Assembly: GCA_000091205.1 (NCBI GenBank)
Contig: AP006502.2
Direction: 5' to 3' (one strand)
DNA length: 64,000 nt
Origin: Cyanidioschyzon merolae
Lineage: Eukaryota
Of the stretch, positions 1 through 64,000 are shown piece by piece. Within the stretch, counting starts at the first letter, position 1. The number at the start of each line of letters is the position of its first letter. Under the pieces are notes generated by a model that saw only the letters and a program-made list of their open reading frames with translations, was not told the DNA's origin and did no database searches. The translations under genes were made by a program, and so were the position numbers.

Positions 1-283
1 GATACTTCCAGTATCTCTGGAATCTTGCAGAACAAAGTGTGCAGGATAGGCCTGATCGAGCGCGAAACGCTCATACTCAGCGGGGGTGCTCGACCTCGGC
101 ACTTGTCGTGCCGTGTTTCAGGAACACGCACGGGCGACGACTGCATCCGTTGTCTCGATAGGAGCGCTCTGCTCGGTTACTGTGAGAGAAACGGCGGCCC
201 AGGGCGCGTTGCAACTGCATTCGTTTGAGAGCACGCACTCGCACGCGCATCCCTGGCGTGGGAGCGCGTCACCCTACCCAGCC

Positions 284-820
284 ATGGTTTCGGTGCGACG
301 TGCGACGCCCGCTGACCTCTTGGCCATGCAATACTGTAACTTGCAATGTCTCCCAGAGAACTACCAAATCAAGTACTACATGTACCACCTGCTGTCGTGG
401 CCGCATTTACTCTACGTCGCAGAGGACCTAGACGGGAGCATTGTTGGGTATGTTCTTGCCAAAATGGAGGAAAGCCCCGGATCCACGGACGCGGGCTCCA
501 GTTCAAACACAGCAGCGACCTCTGGGGCTGTTAAACCGGTGCGTCATGGTCACATCACTTCGCTGGCGGTGCAACGGTCTCATCGAAAACTCGGTATCGC
601 GAAACGATTGATGTGTATCGCACATCAGGCAATGCGTGAGGAGTACAATGCTGCCTATGTATCGTTACATGTTCGGTTGAGCAACGTAGCTGCGCAGCAC
701 TTGTACCGAGACTCGTTAGGCTATCAAATCCATACCACTGAGGTTCGTTACTATGCGGATGGTGAGGATGCGTACGATATGCGGTTGTGGTTCTGTTCTG
801 ACTCGATCCCGAAAGCATGA
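284..820 (+). CDS. NAA10: N-alpha-acetyltransferase catalytic subunit (NatA Naa10/ARD1)
   Basis: Near-collinear match to Naa10, including MQ.CNL.CLPENYQ.KYY.YH and [15 protein letters not shown]. The ORF-track start at 86 is GTG; trimmed to the first ATG ([13 protein letters not shown]). Confidence 0.85.
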
Positions 821-1544
821 GTATTGAGCGCAATCAGTGCATGTTCAGGCAAGATTTGCAGCAAAGCAGCACCACTGGGGAACGAGCCGCTGTCCAACGC
901 TTTGTGAATGCTTGATCAAACGCTTAAATGGCTCAACGAAATGTCGGTGCATGAAGCTGTAGGTGCAGTGTGCAGACCAGCGAGACTCGAAGGGGATTGT
1001 GGTGGCCTCAGTGCAGTTCGCACTCGCATGCGGGGACCCAGCGAGCCTCTATGGCCTTGGAGCAACTGGTACCAACTCTTTACCATCGAGAATCGTGTCG
1101 TTTTTGTTTTGGTGTTGATTTGGGAACCGGGTACCCGACATATTATCCATGTCTTATGCCTGGAGTAAACAAATTCAGAGCCCGCGTCTACGTAACCAGC
1201 CTAGTGCTACCCGAAAATTCTGACAAGCGTCTTTATCGTGTATCAAGAGTTTCCGCACGAGGTTTCCAATGCGCTTTCGGACGGAGAACCGAAGCGATAG
1301 GCGTTCTGGTAGCTGTCGCGGGGGCATCATCGACATATGCTGAAAGAATAGAAACTCTGCTCTGACTAGCAACTCGATAACAGTTTCGTTTGACCTTGAT
1401 TGTAAGCGCAGAAATGGGGAAAAGTTTCAGTATCTCGGAAAGTTTACCTTTTAGGCGGAAGGTCCCGCGAGCCGGACGAGTCTTCGGGGCTAGCTAGTGC
1501 TTCATGCTTCCTCCAGTGGCGGGTTCTTTAAAGAAACCTGAGCT

Positions 1545-1910
1545 ACTCGTCCGTAACGCAATTCAATCTGGGACTAGGAGCGTGTATGCTGCGTCTGGGC
1601 GTCGCCCTGGTCGCAGTGGACGCCCAGTATATCGCACCGTGCCGCCGCAGGCAGTGCGTCTCTCTGCGCAGCTTCCAGGCTCCTAGAATGATTAAGTACT
1701 CCGACTCCGTGTCCGATGAACCACGCCTCGAGCCGACGCCCTCAGTGGTATGCCAAAGCCGTTCTGTCTCCGTGCAGCACCTGCTTCGGCGGTATATAAG
1801 CGCTACGGCGGGTGCTCAAAACAGCTAGTCGGCGCACTATAGAACATACGAAACGACCAGTATATCAGAGAGCATGTATGGGTGATAGAACTTGAAGGTA
1901 GATGCTTCAT
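1545..1910. repeat. ~370-bp dispersed repeat, copy A (paralogue of 13291-13665, ~70% identity, same orientation)
   Basis: Shared blocks include gctactcgtccg, cccagtatatcgc, ccgcaggca, gcaggctcc(c/t)agaat.atgat.tactccgac.ccgt, ctcgagccg, gccgttctgtct.cgtgc, acgaaacgac.a.tatatc and atgcttca. Confidence 0.6.
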
Positions 1911-2362
1911 GATGGACGCTTTCCCGAAAGCCATTATCCTTTCCGAATCCTCGGATCCATGGTCAGTCTAAACATTCTCTCATCTGAAAAGAATTCGACA
2001 TACGCTGTGTAAATGTTCAAAGCGAGCACCATATGAACTGGAACGCTACCAATGGCTAGAACGTGTGTCGAAGGAGACCTATTCATCCCGAGGAAGGTCT
2101 CGTGGGGTCTTCTCGGGCGCTCCGGCGCACGCGCCAAGCAAATTTCGAACCTCCGCTTGTGCTTATACAAGCATGGGAGACAAGCACTTCATGAACACCA
2201 CCATGACGAAGCTTTACCGCTACTAAACGAAAGTAGACTGGTTAAACTTGACGAAAGCGTTCAGGTTCCTTTGTGCAATTCATCAGACTGCTTACTTTTG
2301 GGTCCCGTCCCAGGTTTACGGCTGCGGAGCGAGCACTTACAAACGGGACTCATCCAGCGCGT

Positions 2363-4120
2363 ATGGCCCCCGAAAGTGCACAAGTAACCAGTTTCGACGC
2401 GTTCCTCCATAGTGTGAGTGCTTGGGAGCACCTTCTCGAGTCTGATGCTCAGGAAACAGCGCAGAAGCAACTGAACGTCCTTCGACGCTCAGTGCCGCGC
2501 CAGCGGACCCCGAACGAACCAACACCCAGAGACGCAGCACACGCCCTCGAGACACTCTGGCTGAAGAAACACGCTGCCCTGTGGTATCGCTGGACGCCGA
2601 CCCTATGTCAGGGAGTGCGAAACGGACGCGCTGCTTCCTGCTCGCTGCTGTGCTTCCTTTTCGACGGGGCGCAGCGTTTCCTGTACCCGCTCTGTGGGAT
2701 GGTACTCAAGGCGCCACGACGTGCGACACGCATGGAAGGAGCACCAAACGCAACCAGCACCATGAAGAGCGCTCGACAGCAGACGTTTGTGCCCATGTCG
2801 GAACGGTATCGGTTGCATCTTCAACTGGTCTACGATACACTGGTCGAAACGATGCAGGCGCAGCTGACCCAAGCTGCAACTGCATTGACCGGTATAGTCA
2901 GCAGGGGAGGTGTGGATTCCAGCACCTCGACCTGTCAGCTCATGCGCTGCCTCGGGGTCGTGGTGCAGAATACGCCATCACGCTGTCTCCCGAGCGCACA
3001 GCTCAAGACCGCCGGGAACCTGCTCTGGGACCAGTACGCGCTTTCACTTGGGCCAGAGCTTGAAACGCTTCGAGCAGCGGCCATCTCCTGTCTGAAAAGT
3101 ATTCATGATCGTCTACAAACCATACCGCCGCTGGAGCAGCTTTTAGCGAATCCGCTGCGCTGGAATGATGCGCACGTGGTTTCGTTCGTGGAAGCCATGC
3201 TAACACTACGCATGCGTCATCTGAGCAGGGTCCAAGAATCCGCACCCGACAGCACTGCCGTCGACGAACTGGTACTTGCGATGGTCGAGCATCATTTTCG
3301 AAGTGCATCGACGAGTCCAGCGCTGCGACTACAAAGCGCCCGTCTCTTGCGCTTGCTGTTGCGCTCGCGGCCATCGATCGCAAGTTCGCGTAACGCACTC
3401 CTGTTCCGCATGTTGAAGGATCCCTTCCACGCGGTACGTGTGGTTGCCATCGCCTGTTTGAGTCAGCCTGGAATTGGAGCCGCAGGCACGCCGCTCTTTC
3501 GAGAGCTCGAGGCGTTAACCGCTGACCCCATTGCATCGATGCGCGCCGCTGCGTGTACCGCATTAGGGCGGCTCGCGGCGGATCCAGGCGCGTTCATCCC
3601 TCAAACAGAACCTACGATCATTCTCGATAACGACTGGAATGCATTGAAAGGGCGTGCGATGGATCTTCTACTGAAGCGACTCGAAGAAGATCCAAATGTC
3701 CATGTTCGAGCAGCTGCCGCCTACTCGTTGAGCCAGTTCTGCACGCATGCAGAACGCTTGGCGGCGCGACTCCCCGAGAGGATCATCGAATTGGCGATTG
3801 ATGAACTTCGACGTGCACCATATTCGAGTCAAGCAAGCGCGTACTGTCGCCTTCTGGGTGCGTCCGTCCCGTCCGAAGCACAGCGAACACAGATCGTTGT
3901 GGTGATCGGGGATATTGTGCAGGGTGCACGTCGAAAGGCGCTGCGCCAACAGGCGATCCTGGCGCTGGCGAAGCATGTACGACCTGCCGACGGGGCGGCA
4001 CGCTGGTCGCTTGCACAGAAGCCGGACAACGAACTGGACCTGGATCAGTGTGGACGAAACGCTGCGCCAGCGGAAACGCCACATCAGGATGCGGTTGCTT
4101 CGAATCGGACGGGAGCGTAG
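2363..4120 (+). CDS. HEAT/ARM-repeat protein, function unassigned
   Basis: 585-aa ORF from the first ATG (the track start at 2273 is GTG). Repeated DP..VR.AA..AL helical repeats such as DPNVHVRAAAAYSL, DPIASMRAAACTAL and DPFHAVRVVAIACL. No specific family recognised. Confidence 0.45.
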   Translation: MAPESAQVTSFDAFLHSVSAWEHLLESDAQETAQKQLNVLRRSVPRQRTPNEPTPRDAAHALETLWLKKHAALWYRWTPTLCQGVRNGRAASCSLLCFLFDGAQRFLYPLCGMVLKAPRRATRMEGAPNATSTMKSARQQTFVPMSERYRLHLQLVYDTLVETMQAQLTQAATALTGIVSRGGVDSSTSTCQLMRCLGVVVQNTPSRCLPSAQLKTAGNLLWDQYALSLGPELETLRAAAISCLKSIHDRLQTIPPLEQLLANPLRWNDAHVVSFVEAMLTLRMRHLSRVQESAPDSTAVDELVLAMVEHHFRSASTSPALRLQSARLLRLLLRSRPSIASSRNALLFRMLKDPFHAVRVVAIACLSQPGIGAAGTPLFRELEALTADPIASMRAAACTALGRLAADPGAFIPQTEPTIILDNDWNALKGRAMDLLLKRLEEDPNVHVRAAAAYSLSQFCTHAERLAARLPERIIELAIDELRRAPYSSQASAYCRLLGASVPSEAQRTQIVVVIGDIVQGARRKALRQQAILALAKHVRPADGAARWSLAQKPDNELDLDQCGRNAAPAETPHQDAVASNRTGA

Positions 4121-9006: not shown

Positions 9007-10896
9007 TCAAATGGCTGAACGCGAACGGTCCACAGACTCTTGATCCGGAGCTTGTCGCTGCTCCATCCACTGAATATACGCTGTCTGTTGCTTGCTGTGC
9101 TCCACAATGTCCGGGAAGCGGAGCCCAACCTGCAGCTCATCTTGAGGGCACCGAGCCCGCTCAACAAGAACAACAACTGTATCAGGCACGTCCAGCATCG
9201 CTTGCCAGCCATCCGTTGCGTTCACGGAGAAGAGGCCGCCCCAGACACTTCGTTGCTGATGCATGACCACGAATTCCAGCTGCAAACGAATATCCTCCGG
9301 CTCGCGTTCCAGCCCTGGTCGATGCTCGAGTTTCACAAGCAGACCTCGAGACTCGGATCGCGCCAGTGGCCCCGCATGCGCAGCGACTCCATCGCTGGGG
9401 GTCGGGCGTTGCGCCCGAGGCGGCGTCTTCCTGTCAGGTATCCGCGGCGAACGCGTTGCGTCCCAGGAGCAGGCATCCATCCATTGAACTTGCCACCGCA
9501 AACCGCATACCTTCAACGTGCCGGGAACACGGGCCCATGCAAATGGTGGTAGCACCGCACATTTCAGCGGTATAGGTGCTTGGTCCTCGGGAAGCGCCAC
9601 CAACATCGTAGTACCAGCGGATTCGCTCCACGCACTGCATACCGCGTCGGATGCATCTATGACGGAGAGCGCGCTCAGCGCTTCCCAGCGCTCTTTCCAT
9701 TCCTGGTGTGCACGTAAGAGCGACTCAGCGCTGCTGGGGAGGGCGTGTGCGCGCTCCGCATAATGCCCTGCAATGTCCTGACGATACGCCAGCAGGCGAC
9801 GTTCCATGTCGCGGAGTAACCGCCGCAGATGCATACGCATGTCCACGAGACGCGTACGTGCTGCCTGCTGGGACTGGATCCGCTGCTGGACCTGGGTATC
9901 GATCTGCTCGAGCACGGAATCCATGAAACGTTGAATACGCTGGGAAAGCGCTTCACGCTGCCGCAGAAAGAATCGAGATGTCTGCTCGTACTCGAGCAGT
10001 TGGCATTCGAAACGCTGAAGGCGCTCGCGAAGCGGTTGCAAACCCTGCTCTAGCTCAGATGCCAAACTTTGGAGTCGCTCGTGGGCGCGTTCCAGCGGAT
10101 GGTAGCGATGCTCGCACTCGGGCAGCGGAGCACAGCACTCCGCACATATGAAGCGATTGCAGCGTTGGCAGTAATACCGCACAGCTTCATGAGCGTGGAC
10201 CGAGCAGCACCATAATGTTGCCTTCAGCGCTGACAGGGATCGCGGTGCACCTGGATTCTTTTCCGCTGGCTGCTCTGGCAGCGCCAGTTTCGGGCCTCGG
10301 CGGATGTTCTGCAGCAGCTCGCGGAGACAACGCACCAGCACCAGTTCGTGACGAGCAACGGGCTGTCGACAGTGTGGACACGGTTGTGTGCTCGCGATAC
10401 GACGGTGTCCCTGCGACGACGCCGTGCTGGGCTCTCGCCACCACTTCGTCGCACACCGTTCGCAAAACAAGACCCCGCACGAAGGACAGAGAAGCGGCTC
10501 GCGAGGGAGCTCAGCGCAAATAAGGCAGTTCAAATGGTGTTCAAGTTGTGTCGTCCAGGGGTTTGCGTTCGTCGAGGTCACAGGCGGCTGCCCCGTCGCG
10601 TTCAGGTCGGTGGGGTGTACCTCCTCGAGGGCCAGGCACTGCTCGCTCGGCTGTGAAAGAACGGTACCAGACGACCTGTCCCCTCTTTCTTCCACTCTAC
10701 ATAAACGTGCTAGCTGTGCAACAAGTTGCATCCAATCAAGCGACTCGGGTGTGCGGTCTGGGGCGAGCTCCTCGCTGTCGGCGCTCAGCGGTGGGCTGCC
10801 CGCTCTCGGCGACACCAGCCCACTCAGTGCTGTGTCGCTGAGCCGGTCGTCACCGACAGAGCATTCCAACGACGACAGGTCCGTATCACTGTCCAT
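9007..10896 (-). CDS. RING / B-box / coiled-coil E3-ligase-like protein with a possible C-terminal MATH(TRAF)-like domain
   Basis: C3HC4 RING (CLICAELPREPLLCPSCGVLFCERCATKWW...CPHCRQP). B-box-like zinc finger (CCSVHAHEAVRYYCQRCNRFICAECC...CEHRYH). Long heptad coiled coil. ATG at 10896. Confidence 0.6.
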   Translation of the reverse strand: MDSDTDLSSLECSVGDDRLSDTALSGLVSPRAGSPPLSADSEELAPDRTPESLDWMQLVAQLARLCRVEERGDRSSGTVLSQPSEQCLALEEVHPTDLNATGQPPVTSTNANPWTTQLEHHLNCLICAELPREPLLCPSCGVLFCERCATKWWREPSTASSQGHRRIASTQPCPHCRQPVARHELVLVRCLRELLQNIRRGPKLALPEQPAEKNPGAPRSLSALKATLWCCSVHAHEAVRYYCQRCNRFICAECCAPLPECEHRYHPLERAHERLQSLASELEQGLQPLRERLQRFECQLLEYEQTSRFFLRQREALSQRIQRFMDSVLEQIDTQVQQRIQSQQAARTRLVDMRMHLRRLLRDMERRLLAYRQDIAGHYAERAHALPSSAESLLRAHQEWKERWEALSALSVIDASDAVCSAWSESAGTTMLVALPEDQAPIPLKCAVLPPFAWARVPGTLKVCGLRWQVQWMDACSWDATRSPRIPDRKTPPRAQRPTPSDGVAAHAGPLARSESRGLLVKLEHRPGLEREPEDIRLQLEFVVMHQQRSVWGGLFSVNATDGWQAMLDVPDTVVVLVERARCPQDELQVGLRFPDIVEHSKQQTAYIQWMEQRQAPDQESVDRSRSAI

Positions 10897-11055
10897 CAGG
10901 TAGAGTGGGAGCCTGACGGGCTGTTTGCCGCACCAAGCGACGTTCTAAACTCGAACGACGTCGGGCGTGTACAGTAGTGGCGAACCGTACGCCCTGGACA
11001 AGAAGTCTTCAACCGAGGTGCAGACGCCTCCCCGTCTTTTTGGACCGGCTACCTA

Positions 11056-12801
11056 CTACTGATTCCAATTTTTCTCATATAATTCAACTTTTAGAGGTTG
11101 TCTACTAAAGTTCTCTCTTGTCCATTCTGGAGGTCTTTTCTCCAGCACCGCACATTTCCCTATATTGACAGCGGCGTTAACGTCACGGTTCACAAACTCC
11201 ATCCGTTTCTTGCCATCACTGGTTGTACTTCCTAATGCAAGTAGTCCACGAACTTTCGACATCCTTTCCATATGCTCTTCCGTCAGCGGTCCATACCTTT
11301 TTATATCCTCAGGGCTCCTCTGGCACTTTTCTATCCCGACCCCTTGAAGTGTGCACGCCACTTCATGGTGTGTATACGATGTGCGAACCTCACCTACAAG
11401 TATTGTAACGAAACGCCTTGCGCACTCCGTGTACGTTCTCGTCGTTGGAGCTGGTGTAGTTCCTTTTTGGGTCATCCAGTGTCCTGCTCCGTATGTTGCT
11501 ACGAGCCTCTGACCTTCATTCCCCTTCAAGGCGCTCAACTCATTGAAAAAATTCGCGAACGCCCCCTGCTTCCCACAATACAAATTCATTCGCAAACGAG
11601 CCCACCGGGGCTTGGCATACTCCTCCCACAGCGCATCCCAATGAGCGACGCGAACTTCCATAAACTCCCGAAAAGCTTTAAAATCCGCTCCTCGGCTTGT
11701 CACCTCGCTCAAAGCTTCCAGGTGCTCGTTCATTCCTGAATTCCACGTCTCTATTTTCTTCCTTGCATTCATGATTCCCGATTCTCGATAGTATCTCGCT
11801 CTCGAGAACCTCAAAAGACGCATGTCTTTCTGACGTAAGTTACCATCAGTGCCATCTTTCGCACGCTTCGGTGCTGCGATGGTTATGATATTTGTGCTTC
11901 CTGGGTCCGCACCAACGGCAAATTCGTTATCCTGCACTTTCTGCGTCTCAGGACCCGCCTCTTTTTTTTCTTCATGCTTTACCGCGTCAACGACGAAGTC
12001 GTTATCCTCCACCTCTTGCGTCGCAGGATCTGCCTCCTTCTCATCTTCATCCTTCGTCACGTCAACGACGAGGTCGTTATCCTGTACTTTCTGCATCGCA
12101 GGTTCCGCATCCTTCCCATCTTCATCCTTCGTCACGTCAACGACGAGGTCGTTATCCTGTACTTTCTGCATCGCAGGTTCCGCCTCCTTCTCATCTTCAT
12201 GGTTCGCCGAGGGCGGAACTGGACGATCTGTCTTCAACTGCCGATAGTGTACACACAACGCTACTCCATCGGTTTCGATCATCCTAGTGAACAACTTTTG
12301 TTTGCTCACTTTGAGACGTTTGAAATCGAAGATATTCTTCCAGTACGCCTCCTGGTTTTCACCGGAGAACTCCTTCCTGCTAACATTGAACTCCAGACTG
12401 ATCTCCTTAAAGATGCCGTAAAGGACGCCGGAGGCGATACTCAAAAAATGTGACTTGATGTTGTACATTGGAACCACGTTGAAGCGCTTACCCATCAGGA
12501 ACGCCTTCCGTCTCTCCCACTCTTTATTTGTCTCCTCACGCAGCTTCATCTCTGCCTTGCGTTCGAGCTCTCGGTCCAGAAACACGAAATAGCGCAGGAC
12601 GAGGCAATAGTATCTTTCCTTATGTTTTTTCAACTCTGATATCTTGTCTGTTGGATTCGCCAACCCCAAGACTGCACGATGCTCTCGTATAACCGCACGG
12701 ATGACAGAAGCTTCATTCGTGCTCCTGCGTGACGCCTTCTCATAGACGAATTCGATCTCCTGCTCATGCTGGCGATCGTTCGTGATGCCATTGATAATCG
12801 T
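11056..12801 (-). CDS. TnpB/Fanzor-like RuvC nuclease (OrfB_Zn_ribbon type); no ATG start and likely decayed at the 5' end
   Basis: RuvC-I-like [15 protein letters not shown]. TnpB TS..C-type motif [14 protein letters not shown]...C. RuvC-III hallmark [17 protein letters not shown]. The open frame runs from a stop at 12802 to 11056 with a TTG at 12669 and no in-frame ATG before residue ~40. Confidence 0.6.
11926..12210. repeat. tandem 75-bp repeat (3.8 copies) inside the Fanzor-like ORF
   Basis: Units at 11926, 12001, 12076 and 12151 all start gttatcct. They encode acidic 25-aa units ([25 protein letters not shown] x4) just N-terminal of the RuvC-I motif. Copies 3 and 4 are nearly identical. 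Confidence 0.85.
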
Positions 12802-13257
12802 CTATATCCTCTTGGGAGAGATGCCCGGGTAGAGTGCAAACACGGCGCGTATCATGAGACGTTCGAGGTTCATTGTCAAATCGTTCATCAGGTTTCTGAG
12901 GTACTTTTCGCCCCGTAGTTGTAAATATTCCCGTCATCCTTGTATCGAGTACCGTTGGGGCGGGATTCTGCGTAATTTTAGTGCAGGGCATGCACTCGCT
13001 CATTTCTCCTCGACGTTTCCCTCGTACCAAGCATCAGGTGACGAATATAGGTCTTGTCGAAGAACTCGTCCGGAACCTCGACCGTTTCCATGTGCGTCAC
13101 GTCGCGATACATCTCCCTTACCAATTGCATCAGTCCTGACGACGCCTTTACAATACTCTTGGAGTACGAATCGACACGGTTTCTGATCGCATCTCGCAAC
13201 TTTTCCTTGTACGGATCCTTGATATGTGCAAGAAGGTTCCCCAGGCTTGTGGTTCAT
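12802..13257 (-). pseudogene. frameshifted ORF fragments directly upstream of the Fanzor-like frame (probable decayed N-terminal region)
   Basis: Three minus-strand ORFs in three different frames abut and overlap (13257-13000, 13199-12978, 13030-12764). A single frameshift near 12790 would join ...[14 protein letters not shown] to [12 protein letters not shown].... Confidence 0.4.
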
Positions 13258-13290
13258 GCTCCCCCATTGTCTAGTGTTATCGTGAGATCT

Positions 13291-13665
13291 AAGCTACTCG
13301 TCCGCAGTGCAGTTCATTCTGGGACCGTGAACGGGATCATTGGGCGTAACGCTGGTCCCAGTTGACTCCCAGTATATCGCTTCACTGCCGCAGGCAATGA
13401 GTCTATCTTTACAGTTTGCAGGCTCCCAGAATAATGATGTACTCCGACCCCGTATCGAGTGGGTCACCCCTCGAGCCGGCGCCATCTGTGGTACGGCAAC
13501 GCCGTTCTGTCTGCGTGCGGCGACCGCATCGGCGCTTTAGGCGCCATTGCGCACTACCAGGGCAAGCAATCGGCACACGATTGAACGTACGAAACGACGA
13601 TTATATCCGAGAAGGAGTACGGATAATGTTACTTGGAAGTAGGGTATGGATCGATGGATGCTTCA
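13291..13665. repeat. ~370-bp dispersed repeat, copy B (paralogue of 1545-1910)
   Basis: See copy A. It lies immediately 5' of the Fanzor-like ORF fragments. Local GC-rich hairpins gcggcgaccgc and ggcgctttaggcgcc. Confidence 0.6.
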
Positions 13666-15735
13666 CCGCGCACTGAAACAAAGAACAACGAAAAGAAAAG
13701 GCGTACAATCGGAGAAGGTTGGCCTCTGAAAGTGTGTTGTCAACTAAAAAAACTTCCATGCGCCAAGCAAGGCGATGCGGTAAGTTCGTTCGGACACAGC
13801 TACGCATTGATCAAGGTGGCAAGAGAGAATGGTGCTGTAGCCGGTTCGTGTGCGGAAGTTGCGTTCGGTCTGGTCCCTGCGGATTTGAGGACAGTGTCCC
13901 TTCATTACCGCTCGTAGGGACGGTGTGGAAACTTCACTTGATGTGGCTTGATTTATCGAATTTCTTAGAGAACATCCGGTAGGGAGTGGATTGATTACAA
14001 GTCAGTCTTGTAGAGAGCGTTGGCTACGTTCTGTTTTGGGTATGTGTATGTGATGTACAGGATAGGGAATACTGGGCATGTGCTTCATTCACTTGCTGAC
14101 CGTAAAATGACTAATTCGTAAACTTCATACCTGTTTTGCATGCGAGCACTAAGATCTTCACATCATTCCGCAACGTGTCTGCGATCGACCGAAAGCATGC
14201 TTTCAAGTACCTGCATGAGAAACAAAATAAAACGGATTGCGCCGGCACACGAGGTCCAGAGTTCACTGGTACGCGTATCGAGAGAACACAACGCAGGCGC
14301 TGTACCAAGGAGATTAAAATGGAACATTGACCTGCGTTCTCTGTCCTTACGTTTTGGTGATTCGCAAGTTTCTTATCCGATCTACAGCCTCGATATTCCA
14401 AGTGCAGCAATAGGGGATTCCACATTCACATCTCGTTCTAGGATTTTCGGCGGTGGTTTCGAAGTGGCTGCATCGACGCAGCCCCGCTCGAATGCATTCG
14501 ATCACCGGCATCACGGGGATTTGTGGCGTCCTCTCAAATAGATTCCTACAGAACCGATACGATTGTCTATTTCATGGGTGCGAGCCTCGGTTCTTTCCCT
14601 GACTTTACGTACAGGACGCACAAACCATGCATTCTTCAAGATTTCGATCTCACTCTTTCAAGGCAACACCTAAGCAGAACGACATGCTTCCCGAGGGTGA
14701 TGAGAAAAAGAATATGGCTTCGTCCTTTGAGTACTTGTTCACAAGCTCCTGCCAAAAGTTCATGGAACTTCTTGCGTCAAATAATCGATTCCATTCGAAC
14801 GACAAAGCCCATTTTCATCGTTGCAAAAGAGGAACCAGTATTCAACAGCAGCATGCTAATTTACGAGAGGTATACGCCAAGAGGCCCTTGTCTTCAAGCT
14901 TTGCACTAGAGAAAAGTCCTGGACTCGCTGCGCACGCATTATAGCAATCGCTACCACTAGAGGCCGAGTCACCAATTCTGGAAAAGGGAACGTAAGCGGA
15001 TTGCAATGCCTCGACTTGATCTCCGACCTGGATTTTCCGGACGACACTCGTTTCATCATTGACAAAATCGCGTTCCATGAAGCCTTAATCGACAGGAACA
15101 GCTCACGCTTGCTTGCGCAACGGACAGGGTAATTGTCAATGGCCTCACCGAGGAAGAGCCCATGGATGTAGGGTACGACACCTTTGTCTCGCGGACCTAT
15201 GACGGCACTGAGGGTACCGTCTGCACCCGTCATGCGCACGCATCGAGCGATGAAGCCAGCGTTCGCGCGCTCCAAGACGGCTCCCTGAGGCGGACGGCTG
15301 CTGGTCTTATGCGAACCCCTGAGAACAATCAAGTGCCACCGCTGCGAAGGGCGCACAGAAGCTGTATTCAAAGACGCTTGAAGTGTCAAGCGAAGCCTAG
15401 ATCGCAATGACCATGAGTGCATGAAACGCGTCGACAACGCCGGGAATCGGCGTGATCAGAAGTTCAACGCTGCCGTGTACTTCCTTGGGCCTGTGACAAC
15501 GCCACTGGAGGATACAGAGACATCGGCATATTCAGAGCCGGAGCTTAGAGCGCGAGGAAACGGAAGCAGTCACAGAAACAGCGTGCCGCGCTTCGTGTCG
15601 GTGAGAAACGGAAGAAACCAAAACTGTAGAGAGCACATCCGAACTCGCAAACCAGACCTTTTCTATTCATGTCTGACACGAGTGTAACTGCCTGTTTGTG
15701 CTGACCCTGCACGTGTCGCGCTCGAGTCGCTCACG

Positions 15736-15740: not shown

Positions 15741-15749
15741 GGGAATTTG

Positions 15750-15823
15750 TATCGGCGGCGCGACTCGAACGCGCGATCTTGTGCGTGTGAAGCACACGTC
15801 ATAACCAACTAGACCACGCCGAC
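15750..15823 (-). tRNA. tRNA-Val (anticodon CAC)
   Basis: Reverse-complement GTCGGCGTGGTCTAGTTGGTTATGACGTGTGCTTCACACGCACAAGATCGCGCGTTCGAGTCGCGCCGAT+A folds as a cloverleaf. Anticodon stem TGTGC/GCACA, loop TTCACAC. T-arm GCGCG-TTCGAGT-CGCGC. Close to eukaryotic tRNA-Val-CAC. Confidence 0.85.
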
Positions 15824-52329: not shown

Positions 52330-55300
52330 GAGCTCGACGCTGAACTCCTGGGGAACTGTGTACGGGGCAAGAACGCGAACCTGCTCCCTGCGCCACACGC
52401 CAGCAGTTCGCAGCAACAGGTGGCATGGTGTCTAGGTCATGGGGACTGGACTCTACCGCGGCTCGATCTAGACATTCCGCAACAGACTTGGAACTATGAA
52501 CGTGATGGGGTATAAGTTGAGCGATATGATCCATACAGAGAGCGGAGGAGTACGCGAAGCGCAGCCATTGCGTAACGGACGACTTGAATCGATCGATATG
52601 AGCGGGTAACTAATCAGAAATGCGATCGGAATACTGAGCGAGTGATGATTCGGGTGCGAGTATTCCCCCAATAGACTCCAACATGTTCATGTGATTGGGT
52701 AACTCGTCGGGGGTATGGTGCGAATAGAGAGCCAAAGAGTGCGAAAGTGTTTCTGGTGATGATTCCCCAATAGAAGCAGGAGCGTGGTAAACTTTGTGTC
52801 CTCGTAGCCAGACTCTTATGCCGAATGCTTGACATTTTTCGAGAAAGCTTCAGAGCAGCTACTGCTCATGCTCGCAACGCGATAATTTTCCTGCTCTGGA
52901 GCGAAGAGGAAACACTCGAGAGCTAATGCGATCACAAGGGAACTTGAGCATGCACCGCATACACTCGGATTGGATGGTGTTATAGACACAGCGTGCCGGC
53001 ATTGTACGCAGAGCAGCAAAATCCCGAATACCTGCACCAGCACGCACTTTTCGTTTCCGTTCGTTTCTCCGCGCAGGTATTCAAGAAAACGACTGTCTCC
53101 TGTAGAGTGGAGAACGTTTGCCAAAGTGCTTCATGCTTTCAGTGGTAGCGTGCAAGCATACTGGGCTCACTTCCACGAATTCGTCATGCTGCAGTAACCA
53201 GGTAGATGAATCGCGCTTCTCGTTGTCCTTGTTCTGAACGTGGCGTACTGAAAACAGATCCCGTTGAATTCTATCTACAGAAATGTCTCCTCGTGAGCAA
53301 AGCCCATTCCATTTTTTTCTGAGAAATTCTATAAAACAGGCCGGAGCATATGACGCTTCCATGTCGTTGATGCGAACGGTGATGACGAGAAGCGGACAGA
53401 CAGAGAAAAACAAACCTCTATGCGGGACCATCGCGTATTGAACAAGACGCATTCGATTACGCCATGAAAGAGGAACGCATGCTGTACCAGAGACAGGTTT
53501 TCGTGTTCCTCACTGAGACCTGTTTCGTGAGAAATCTTAGACCCGTGTATGGGTGAACAAAGAGCAGCAATCCGTTGTTCTTGAACGAGATACAAGCGAG
53601 CATGGTGGCAAAAAAAACTGCCCTGGTGGCGATTCAGTCGATTGGTCACGTACCAGTCGCCAGTCGGACAGAATCGTTGAACACTTCCTCCTTTGTCAAA
53701 TCATGCCGTGTCGTCCACTTCGAATATTCTCCTGTCCCGCTCTTAGACAGCGTCAGTTTCCTTCACTCAGAAACTATCACAGATCATGCAGTTGAGACTG
53801 CGGTTGAGCTCCTCTTCGATTTGGATTATTCTCCCTGGCTAGATCCATTCAAAGGCGTCTTTTCCGTTTGCAAACGCCATTTCTGCGCACGCCGATCACT
53901 AGAGGAGTCCTTTGCATCCGCAAAACCGAAAGATTCAGTAAGGCATGAAGAATCGCGTAACTTGTGAATCGAGAACATCGCTCCTAGTCACACTTGCCTT
54001 CACGCTCCTTGTCAAGCGACCCATCGGACGCGTTCCGTACGCAGGGCTGCTAATTATCCACGTTCTTCGGAATTTTTTCAATGAAATCTTCGCAGAGCAG
54101 CATATATGATGCTCGGGGCTGTGGACGCAAATCGGTTTGGTCGAAGGTTCATAGATTCACATACACGAACACGCTTCCAAGCATCCCTTGAAGCGCTGCC
54201 GCGCCGCCTCGGCGACGGAAACAAATGTAACCGTTCAGGTGCCAGAAAGCATCGAACCGAGCTCAATAGTCATACGCTGTTCAATGTCGTGCAATTCAGT
54301 CTGCACACCCTATAGGCGTTGCACACTTAGCTTACTAGATCAGATAAGTTGAGAATAGTGTGCGGAATTCCTGGGCTGTAACCGGAGGCAAATAATCAGC
54401 TATGGGCCGGAGAGTTCCCAGTGGTTGCCAGTTCGGATGCGACGTCACGATAAAGACGCGAGTTGTTTCAGATCGTCCAAGCTCACTAGCTGCCCTTGGC
54501 CTCGGACGGACGGGTGTCGTATCCAAACGATACGTGAAACTTGATGGCTCCTTGCGCTGCATCTTGCAGTACAAGGTTCTTATGAAAAGAGTCCTCCCGA
54601 TCAGAGCAGACTTCCTCCCAGAATCCGAGCGCCCTCACCCCCTCAAGCATCTGTTCTGTGTGTGGTCCCGGTATCTCAGCTCAAGGCCGATGATATCAGC
54701 GCAGAGAGTTGCGAACTCTATGAACTGATCATTGAGTTGCACCTGATCACTGCGATTGAAAATGTAGCACTGGGACAACTTTAGAAAAGATCATTGGTGG
54801 AGCTCGTTCCCGACTTCTCGTGTACAGGATGGCAATGAAAAGAAGTTTGCATGAACGATTGAGACCAACAGAATATCCATATGTATGCCTCTCGTGAGAA
54901 CTACGCCTCAGTCGAACAACGAGACTCATTTTCAATCCTTCACCATCGATGAAGGGCAAGACACTCCGGTGGCCGTGGATCCCACGTTGCGTGGCGTTAT
55001 AGCCATCGCCATGCCTTTCAATCAAGGGTGACGCAGCACAAATTTGAACGGAGTGCAGCTGAAGCTGAAAAACTTCCACAGAGCTCGTTGTCGTCCGGGG
55101 TCGGACATGTTGGACAGCAGGAGCCGACGAGCAAATGGAATCGCGGCGTCAGGATCCATCTCGATGCTCTGAGCATCGTGTCCTGCAGAGGAGCATGCTT
55201 AGTGCGCTTCATTCTGAGAGTCTATGCGCGTCGAAGTTGCTCACATGATCGAAACCTGGCAGGAATGCATGGTATTGCGCTGGAGTCGCCCAAAGCTTTG

Positions 55301-56908
55301 GGTTTACGAACACAGGAAATGAGTATTCTCAAAATTCTTCTATGATTTCGAAAGGGAAATTACAGAAAGTTCACTTCGGTTGGTGGCAGCCGCTGACGCG
55401 CTACATGCTGTAGCGCGTCAGGATCGCTCGCCTGCTCCTTCAACAAGTGCGTACCATGAGTCATGCATCGATTCTATATGATTCCTTTCGATGCGTCCGG
55501 GACGACGTACAAGCATCACGAGCACGCAGGTATTGGTAGGAAAGAAAGCGGTGGTTCAGCCCCGGATGCACAAGATGGCGTGCGGCAAGCTTACCGAACG
55601 TCAGATGACGAGACGTTCCTATGTATGAGGCTTGATTCGATGCGATACGAATAGCAACCATGCACACAAGAACGTTCTACATCGAGGCTTGAACACCTCA
55701 ATCAACATCTGGGAACGAGTTGTACTTCCGGAGCGTACTGCGGCTTCGTGTCGAGCGATCATGAAACGTACTCGTTTCGTGCTCAGTATGAGCATTGTGC
55801 TGAATTGCTGCAGACTTTCGATGAAAATCTCGCCGGTCAAGAGAGATGGCGCAGGATTCTCGTCCAGAGCAAGGCACTGGTACGAAAAGGTCAGCAATCC
55901 AGAAACGCTGGTGCGCCATCCACAGCGATACCGGGAACGATATTCCTCGGTTAATGATGTACGATAATAGTATTCTCTTATTCGATGTTGCTGGGGTTTG
56001 TTGATGATCACGCTTTCGTGCAAACAGCGCATCCTTCGAGGACTCCATGCAGATCCCGGACTCCGCTCGTGTGAAAATCGGCGCTGCAACGTCCCATGTA
56101 GTGAGAAACTGCCCAGATAGAGCGTCCGATTTCGCTCAACTTGGTGTACACGAGTAGTTTCAACGGCAGGCATGGTGCACCAGGCAGCCTCGTCCAGCCT
56201 CTAGCCATACTATTGCGAAACCATTTATACAGGACAGAACAGCGCTCGCCCGGAGCCTAGTCTTGCGGCTGTAGACCGCTGAGCAGGACGATCGTGTGCA
56301 ACGACTTGAACGAGCGCGCCGGGTAGAGCTGTAGCATTCCAAGTGCGTTTGACGTTAAAATCCCATTAGTTCCTGGATATTCATCGGTTCAGTGCAATCC
56401 GGTGGTGCATATACGATCGTTGCGGGGCGATACTACACAGGACGCGTCTTGCGAGGACAAGCCATCTGGTCTCGTATGGTGCTATTTTGAACCTGCTTAA
56501 TGGTCTCGATGAAATTCGTGGCGCTCGCGGGTACGATATCCCACAGCAGTCATTCGCTGCATCAGGCTAAAGGTTTACAGTTTCGTGCGAAGCTACGTGC
56601 GCCTTGGATGAAGAGCGCACTCCGCGTCAATCACCACGGGTTTCACCCTCTAGAATACGATACATCCTATGCATTCGTTTAATATCGACAGTTCAGAACG
56701 AAGCTCGATCCCCGTGTTGCACACTCGATAGAGTAAGAAGCGCACAGTTGCGTCAATAGCGATATGCGTGATGCTACCCCTAACGACGCGAGGTGCACAG
56801 CGCATGGACATTGTCGTCCACTGATAGCGCTCTGGTTGTTTCAGCGCCGGGCGCTTCTGCCATAATGCGCGCCCTCGGGCATTGAGCAACGAAACGCTCT
56901 GGCACGAG

Positions 56909-63499: not shown

Positions 63500-64000
63500 A
63501 GTAGGAGATCTGGCGAGAATTTGATATATAAATAGGTTGGGGGTTTTGCGCGCAATTTGCGTGGCAAACGCACTGCTGCCAGCCATGATGTTGTCTCTTT
63601 TGTCTAGTATTCCATAGATGCGCGCCGTTGACGTCCGTGCGTTTGCGTTTTCCGGCTTTTGAACTCGATTATGTTCCAGCCCCGCTGCATGTAAAAGAGT
63701 GCTTTTTCGCAGTTCGTAGTGGGGGATCTGAATCGCTATGCAATTTTTTGTGTAGATCGTAGACGAATTGCCAGTAAGATATATTCCTCACTGAAACGTT
63801 CAAAGAGTACTGCATTCCTCCTTCAGTTCAATCATATCATAGTACACAGATAATTGAGGAATCTTGAAAGATGACAGATGCACTCCGCGCCAAAAACCGA
63901 TATTCCCACAGCGTCCATGCGGTCAACGGTAGACAACGACGCGTCGATCGCCTTACGAAAAGCGAAACCGACGATCATCGTCACCACGTGCGCATCAGAT

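Follow-up and report, generated by a model that had tools for sequence, protein, structure and literature searches.

We find that positions 12802-13257 of the window (by which we mean the whole stretch of 64,000 nucleotides that was analysed) are, with very high confidence, the 5' part of a CMe-1A copy that is dead and was inherited vertically. The family is an old one of about 150 copies, a transposable element that carries a Fanzor1 gene and whose intact form encodes a single-exon Fanzor1 of 734 aa. Based on our analysis, a 585-bp internal deletion removed the promoter-proximal region, the start codon and the first 58 codons of this copy, which also gained two nonsense codons, E144* and W203*, and two 1-nt deletions. 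It was proposed in the sequence-only reading that the N-terminus of a Fanzor-like gene is pseudogenised here. This main idea was right and the N-terminus is indeed decayed, while the real lesions differ from those that had been supposed: they are the two nonsense codons, a 1-nt loss at 12907/08 and the 585-bp deletion.

The element lies on chromosome 20 of Cyanidioschyzon merolae 10D, with the Fanzor-like gene on the minus strand. Six long ORFs of the window, flanking the element, match C. merolae 10D proteins exactly, in the range BAM83313-BAM83334, and the chromosome that bears these genes has 1,621,617 bp. It is noted that a tRNA-Val(CAC) gene is present at 15749-15823 on the minus strand, 2 kb upstream of the element (ARAGORN; Rfam RF00005, 62 bits).

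Since neither Pfam nor NCBIfam assigned a family to the window ORFs, the homology was taken from database homologues and from a profile search of the PDB. The database search gave 96 homologues, most of them in JGI hot-spring metagenomes, and the ORF is 70-95% identical to the family members P0001-P0009. A family profile built from 14 diverse members matched the solved Fanzor1 structures of Parasitella parasitica (9cf0, E = 1.6e-30), Spizellomyces punctatus (8gkh, E = 5.1e-28) and Guillardia theta (9cer, E = 3e-24). The description of the gene as Fanzor-like was thus correct, as is also evident from the 87-88% identity of the locus to CMe-1A.

CMe-1A is the Fanzor1 family of C. merolae that was reported by Bao and Jurka (2013, Mob DNA 4:12; PMC3627910), with about 150 copies that are each about 80% identical to the consensus and of which few are intact. 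The consensus has 3169 bp and encodes a 734-aa protein in 1 exon; it has no TIRs, its TSDs could not be determined and its 5' 635 bp are equal to the element TE-N2_CMe (PMC3627910). With the sequence given in Additional file 2 of Bao and Jurka as the reference, a global alignment showed that CMe-1A 1-3169 is colinear, end to end, with window positions 13745..10938. In blastn the identity is 87.4% over CMe 1080-2193, 87.7% over CMe 2124-3137 and 73.9% over CMe 65-494, and the translation, once repaired, shares 81.5% identity with the 734-aa CMe-1 protein. Nucleotide similarity, colinearity and the host C. merolae are therefore as in CMe-1A, and the intact 734-aa single-exon ORF is absent. The family is already known and described, and the locus is an ordinary dead transposon copy of it.

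The lesions were located base by base against three references that agree with one another, namely the metagenome copy L001, the consensus of 41 metagenome copies and the CMe-1A consensus. The features of the copy, all on the minus strand, are as follows.

10938..13745, minus: the whole degenerate CMe-1A (Fanzor1) copy, from global alignment to the consensus.
13241..13745, minus: non-coding remnant of the 5' module (CMe-1A 1-494), which Bao and Jurka equate with TE-N2_CMe, from alignment to the consensus.
13235..13241, minus: junction of the 585-bp internal deletion (CMe 495-1079), from alignment; identical in the orthologous loci L003, L068 and L069.
12981..13235, minus: coding remnant in frame A, codons L59-H143 (LLAHIKDPYKEKLRDAIRNRVDSYSK...NERVHALH), from tblastn and DNA alignments to P0002, L001 and CMe-1.
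12978..12980, minus: nonsense substitution GAA>TAA (E144*), TAA standing against GAA in the family.
12908..12977, minus: remnant in frame A (NYAESRPNGTRYKDDGNIYNYGA), codons 145-167, from homologue alignment.
12907..12908, minus: 1-nt deletion within codon M168 (consensus GCGATGAAG, window GCGA-AAAG), from alignments.
12805..12906, minus: remnant in the main frame (KYLRNLMNDLTMNLERLMIRAVFALYPGISPKRI), codons 169-202, from homologous translation.
12802..12804, minus: nonsense substitution TGG>TAG (W203*), TAG standing against TGG in the family; it closes the long frame upstream.
11056..12801, minus: remaining open frame of 581 codons plus stop, with the RuvC D/E/D; its first ATG is at 12549-12547.
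11913..12200, minus: 75-bp tandem repeat in the ORF, 3.8 copies with 84% matches, in frame; 213 nt more than the consensus.
11068..11069, minus: 1-nt deletion in an A-run (CMe 3035), from alignment to the consensus.
10938..11055, minus: conserved 3' non-coding end of the element, from alignment to the consensus.

The 585-bp deletion took the ATG (CMe 906) and codons 1-58, with the Lys/Arg-rich N-terminus, and upstream of these the 5'UTR and the 3' part of the 5' module. At the other end of the gene, the deletion at 11068/69 brings the frame to a stop at 11058-11056, with NWNQ in place of the last 24 residues of the consensus. When the missing CMe 495-1079 was searched for with an nhmmer profile, no displaced copy was seen at or near the locus. 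A candidate that was tried and rejected is that the repeat at 13237-13752 is a foreign element that truncated the gene. The CMe-1A consensus shows that it is the element's own 5' module, and because the published consensus makes the lesion an internal deletion, a 5' truncation by insertion is rejected.

Two side observations concern the missing part. The only nhmmer matches of the missing 5' part within the window are weak ones near 63656-63812, among them a weak match (E = 0.004) of the CMe-1A 5'UTR profile at 63656-63716 on the plus strand, which could be part of a further copy at the window edge. A possible microhomology, AGCCTG, can be seen by eye at the deletion endpoints, but no weight is put on it because the junction has 5-6 unmatched bases.

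With this map, the puzzling arrangement of reading frames upstream of the long frame can be explained. It had been stated that the main frame is closed upstream at 12802, which holds, as the stop is at 12804-12802 and there is no ATG before 12549-12547, and that three protein-like ORFs in three frames lie upstream. These ORFs do exist, with those off the main frame including the DAIRNRVDSYSK... ORF at 12978..13199 and an ORF at 12764..13030, but coding remnants are present in only two of the frames. In the window, open frames of at least 85 codons occur at 4.9 per kb, versus 2.7 per kb in shuffled sequence, and upstream ORFs of 85 or more codons are not above chance. Because of these open-frame densities the mere presence of plausible ORFs weighs nothing, and it is therefore homology that must decide. 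The homologues (P0002 and the CMe-1 consensus protein) follow frame A from 13235 to 12908 and then the main frame; the homologous path reads through the TAA at 12980-12978, shifts at 12907/08, where the 1-nt loss moves the reading from frame A (LLAHIKDPYKEKLRDAIRNRVDSYSK...) to the main frame, and then reads through the TAG at 12804-12802. The ORF at 12764..13030 has no homologue and is a chance ORF in the unused frame. An ATG-started ORF at 13000..13257 is also off the homologous reading path, with its ATG (13257) lying within the 5' module, and the 73-aa upstream ORF had no exact match in assemblies. The single +/-1 indel near 12790 that had been supposed to separate the upstream pieces is absent: what splits them is the TGG>TAG substitution within one frame, and changing TAG to TGG rejoins them. 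It is thus almost certain that the three ORFs in three frames amount to a single frameshift, a pair of in-frame stops and an ORF that arose by chance. The locus shows by example that ORFs in alternative frames around a frameshift can lead a reader astray who has only the sequence.

The frame changes can look like exon boundaries, and many eukaryotic Fanzor genes contain introns, from which it could be argued that small spliceosomal introns lie in the 5' part and that splicing restores one frame. It would then be expected that extra sequence is present at the breaks. On the contrary, none of the breaks has inserted sequence when the window is aligned with L001, the 41-copy consensus and CMe-1A, and the breaks themselves are a codon-for-codon change of E to stop, a codon-for-codon change of W to stop and the loss of 1 nt. 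Moreover, CMe-1A is listed as a protein of 734 aa in 1 exon (PMC3627910), and just 0.5% of C. merolae genes have introns (PMC1955436). Because no sequence is added at the breaks relative to a single-exon consensus, introns, which the sequence-only reading had entertained as the less likely case, are excluded, and we consider splicing here to be practically without any chance.

Another explanation is that the breaks are assembly or sequencing indels and that the true gene is a single intact long ORF. The frameshifts at 12907/08 and 11068/69 are in or beside A-runs, which are common error sites, as would be expected if this were true. However, two of the three lesions within 12802-13257, GAA>TAA and TGG>TAG, are base substitutions, and the C. 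merolae 10D genome has been completed from telomere to telomere (Nozaki et al. 2007, PMC1955436). The deciding evidence comes from orthologous contigs in three JGI metagenomes, L003 (3300005861, 142-kb), L068 (3300027863) and L069 (3300005573, 122-kb), which carry the same flanking genes as the window locus and are 97.1-98.4% identical to it over the locus. The TAA, the TAG, the deletion at 12907/08 and the 585-bp junction are common to all three; because three independent assemblies share them, an assembly error is excluded. Furthermore, even with all the point lesions repaired the gene would still have no start codon, because CMe 495-1079 is absent. We therefore regard the assembly explanation, too, as having a negligible probability.

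The same contigs bear on the age of the dead copy. Since the lesions are shared with three wild-strain assemblies, the copy was dead before these Cyanidioschyzon lineages diverged, and that the decay is recent, as had been suggested, is not demonstrable with lesions common to orthologues that differ by 1.6-2.9%. In addition, L003, L068, L069 and a partial contig, L002, have an extra 1-nt deletion at 12448, which breaks the long frame. Among the family copies from related metagenomes, stops or frameshifts are present in 53 of 56, with L001 as the only one that is open over nearly the whole length. A broken copy is thus the norm for the family, as Bao and Jurka implied (PMC3627910).

We now consider the 581-codon frame that is still open in 10D. 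It keeps 30 of the 31 family-invariant residues, including the split RuvC Asp/Glu/Asp, present as GADPG (D431), VGEVRTS (E603) and the RuvC-III D672, for which a catalytic role would follow from the family. Three of the four small lesions are within the first ~430 bp of the retained coding sequence and the next 1.7 kb is open, a 5' skew with a binomial P of about 0.03 that was calculated post hoc. This skew, together with the kept invariant residues, counts against a dead copy. So may the pN/pS of 0.42-0.45 of the frame versus L068 and L069, which is readable as residual constraint, although the underlying differences are clustered in tracts. Based on these features, i.e., the open frame, the retained D/E/D and other invariant residues, the concentration of lesions at the 5' end and the low pN/pS versus L068 and L069, it could be proposed that 10D still produces a truncated Fanzor1 of about 498 aa, starting from the ATG at 12549 and either domesticated or residual.

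Several observations argue against such a product, which we consider very unlikely. It would lack some 290 residues at its N-terminal side, among them the basic N-terminus and much of the region aligning to the N-terminal half of the solved Fanzor1 proteins. The frameshift at 12448 in all three wild orthologues is downstream of the ATG at 12549. The invariant D304, which is Asp in 14 of 14 aligned members and is encoded by GAC in the wild orthologue L003, is replaced in 10D by Ala (GCC, window 12434, minus strand), and versus L003, the closest orthologue, the pN/pS of the frame is 0.82; the loss of D304 and this ratio point to relaxed constraint. The differences from L068 and L069 number 21 in 11000-11250 and 23 in 12250-12750 with about 2 per 250 bp between, while the flanking genes show 0-2 differences; such conversion-like tracts are better explained by chimeric metagenome assembly or by ectopic conversion among the ~150 paralogues than by selection. 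It is also noted that the protein collection has no model for the long ORF, while all the neighbouring 10D genes are present with NCBI entries. Because the differences are clustered and all the wild orthologues have the extra frameshift, we read the long frame as a remnant that is not yet broken, and no sign of a working protein was found.

The 75-bp repeat within this frame encodes acidic units of 25 aa that duplicate a segment just upstream of the RuvC-I motif. About one unit is present in the CMe-1A consensus and more are present in other copies, e.g., P0009.

The 118-nt 3' end of the element has a conservation equal to that of the coding sequence. A search of it for an omega-RNA gave no Rfam match, and RNAalifold gave a weak consensus fold of -5.7 kcal/mol, with covariation no better than that of shuffles. 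The right terminus of the element is 42 bp upstream of the ATG (10896) of BAM83315, a gene at 9007-10896 on the minus strand that is described as 'similar to glycogenin-interacting protein', and the promoter or 5'UTR of BAM83315 probably overlaps the relic. That the relic has been partly co-opted, with the 581-codon frame giving a truncated RuvC protein or the 3' end serving as the promoter or 5'UTR of BAM83315, is to our mind a slight chance.

For annotation, the locus should be given as a CMe-1A (Fanzor1) pseudogene rather than as a frameshifted or spliced gene, and beyond that it carries little weight. The lesion map and the three wild-strain assemblies together place the death of the copy before the split of these lineages.

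Other relics in the window and the architecture of related loci were noted as well. A solo TE-N2_CMe (635-bp) is present at 1343-1984 on the minus strand, 81.5% identical to CMe-1A 2-636 and without the Fanzor part. A second, far more decayed Fanzor1-like relic is at about 54489-55802 on the plus strand, with 32% amino-acid identity to residues 249-674 of P0070 (tblastn E = 4e-44), 29% identity to the CMe-1A locus and no ORF above about 184 aa. This relic may come from another, older Fanzor1 lineage than CMe-1A. Bao and Jurka gave just one Fanzor1 family for C. merolae (PMC3627910). When the 5' architectures of the metagenome loci L013-L067 were compared, two forms were found: in about 10 loci the colinearity with CMe-1A begins at position 1, the TE-N2 module included, and at least 20 begin only at CMe ~648-687, with 5-6 of the latter having an inverted TE-N2 fragment (CMe 84-282) about 110 bp upstream. 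Because of these two architectures, TE-N2_CMe would be a separate unit that is often, though not always, joined to the Fanzor unit, as the comparison of loci suggests.

Finally, we compare the window copy with the known systems. It is like the CMe-1A consensus family in being from the same organism, with 87-88% nucleotide identity in the coding part and 74% in the 5' module, and like most of the ~150 CMe-1A copies it has diverged from the consensus. Unlike the consensus, it has the 585-bp deletion, two nonsense codons, two 1-nt deletions and the 213-nt repeat expansion; because of the deletion, the nonsense codons and the 1-nt losses, it is a pseudogene and not among the few intact copies. With respect to the characterised Fanzor1 proteins 8gkh, 9cf0 and 9cer, the profile match spans nearly the full length (E = 1e-30 to 1e-24), and the RuvC-I D, the DEFRTS Glu and the NRDxNAAxNI motif are shared. 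The zinc-ribbon segment differs, with its first Cys pair replaced in the CMe-type proteins (TSYTHHELGC, versus TSSFCPKCES in 9cf0). The change of the first CxxC to HHExxC is family-wide among CMe-type proteins and is located in the window at 11300-11400 on the minus strand; the Pfam scan found no PF07282 (the TNB zinc-ribbon, between RuvC-II and RuvC-III) in the window ORF or in P0002, and found it in 6 of 14 distant family members. Unlike the solved Fanzor1 nucleases, the window copy cannot encode a full protein. With bacterial TnpB of IS200/IS605 and IS607 there is a weak RuvC-III match (8bf8 and 8h1j, E about 0.17) and no significant sequence match other than this motif; unlike the bacterial TnpB systems, the host is eukaryotic, the N-terminal region is much longer and the partner TnpA is absent. 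The product of an intact CMe-1A is a TnpB-like RuvC nuclease that, by analogy with the characterised relatives, is presumably RNA-guided.
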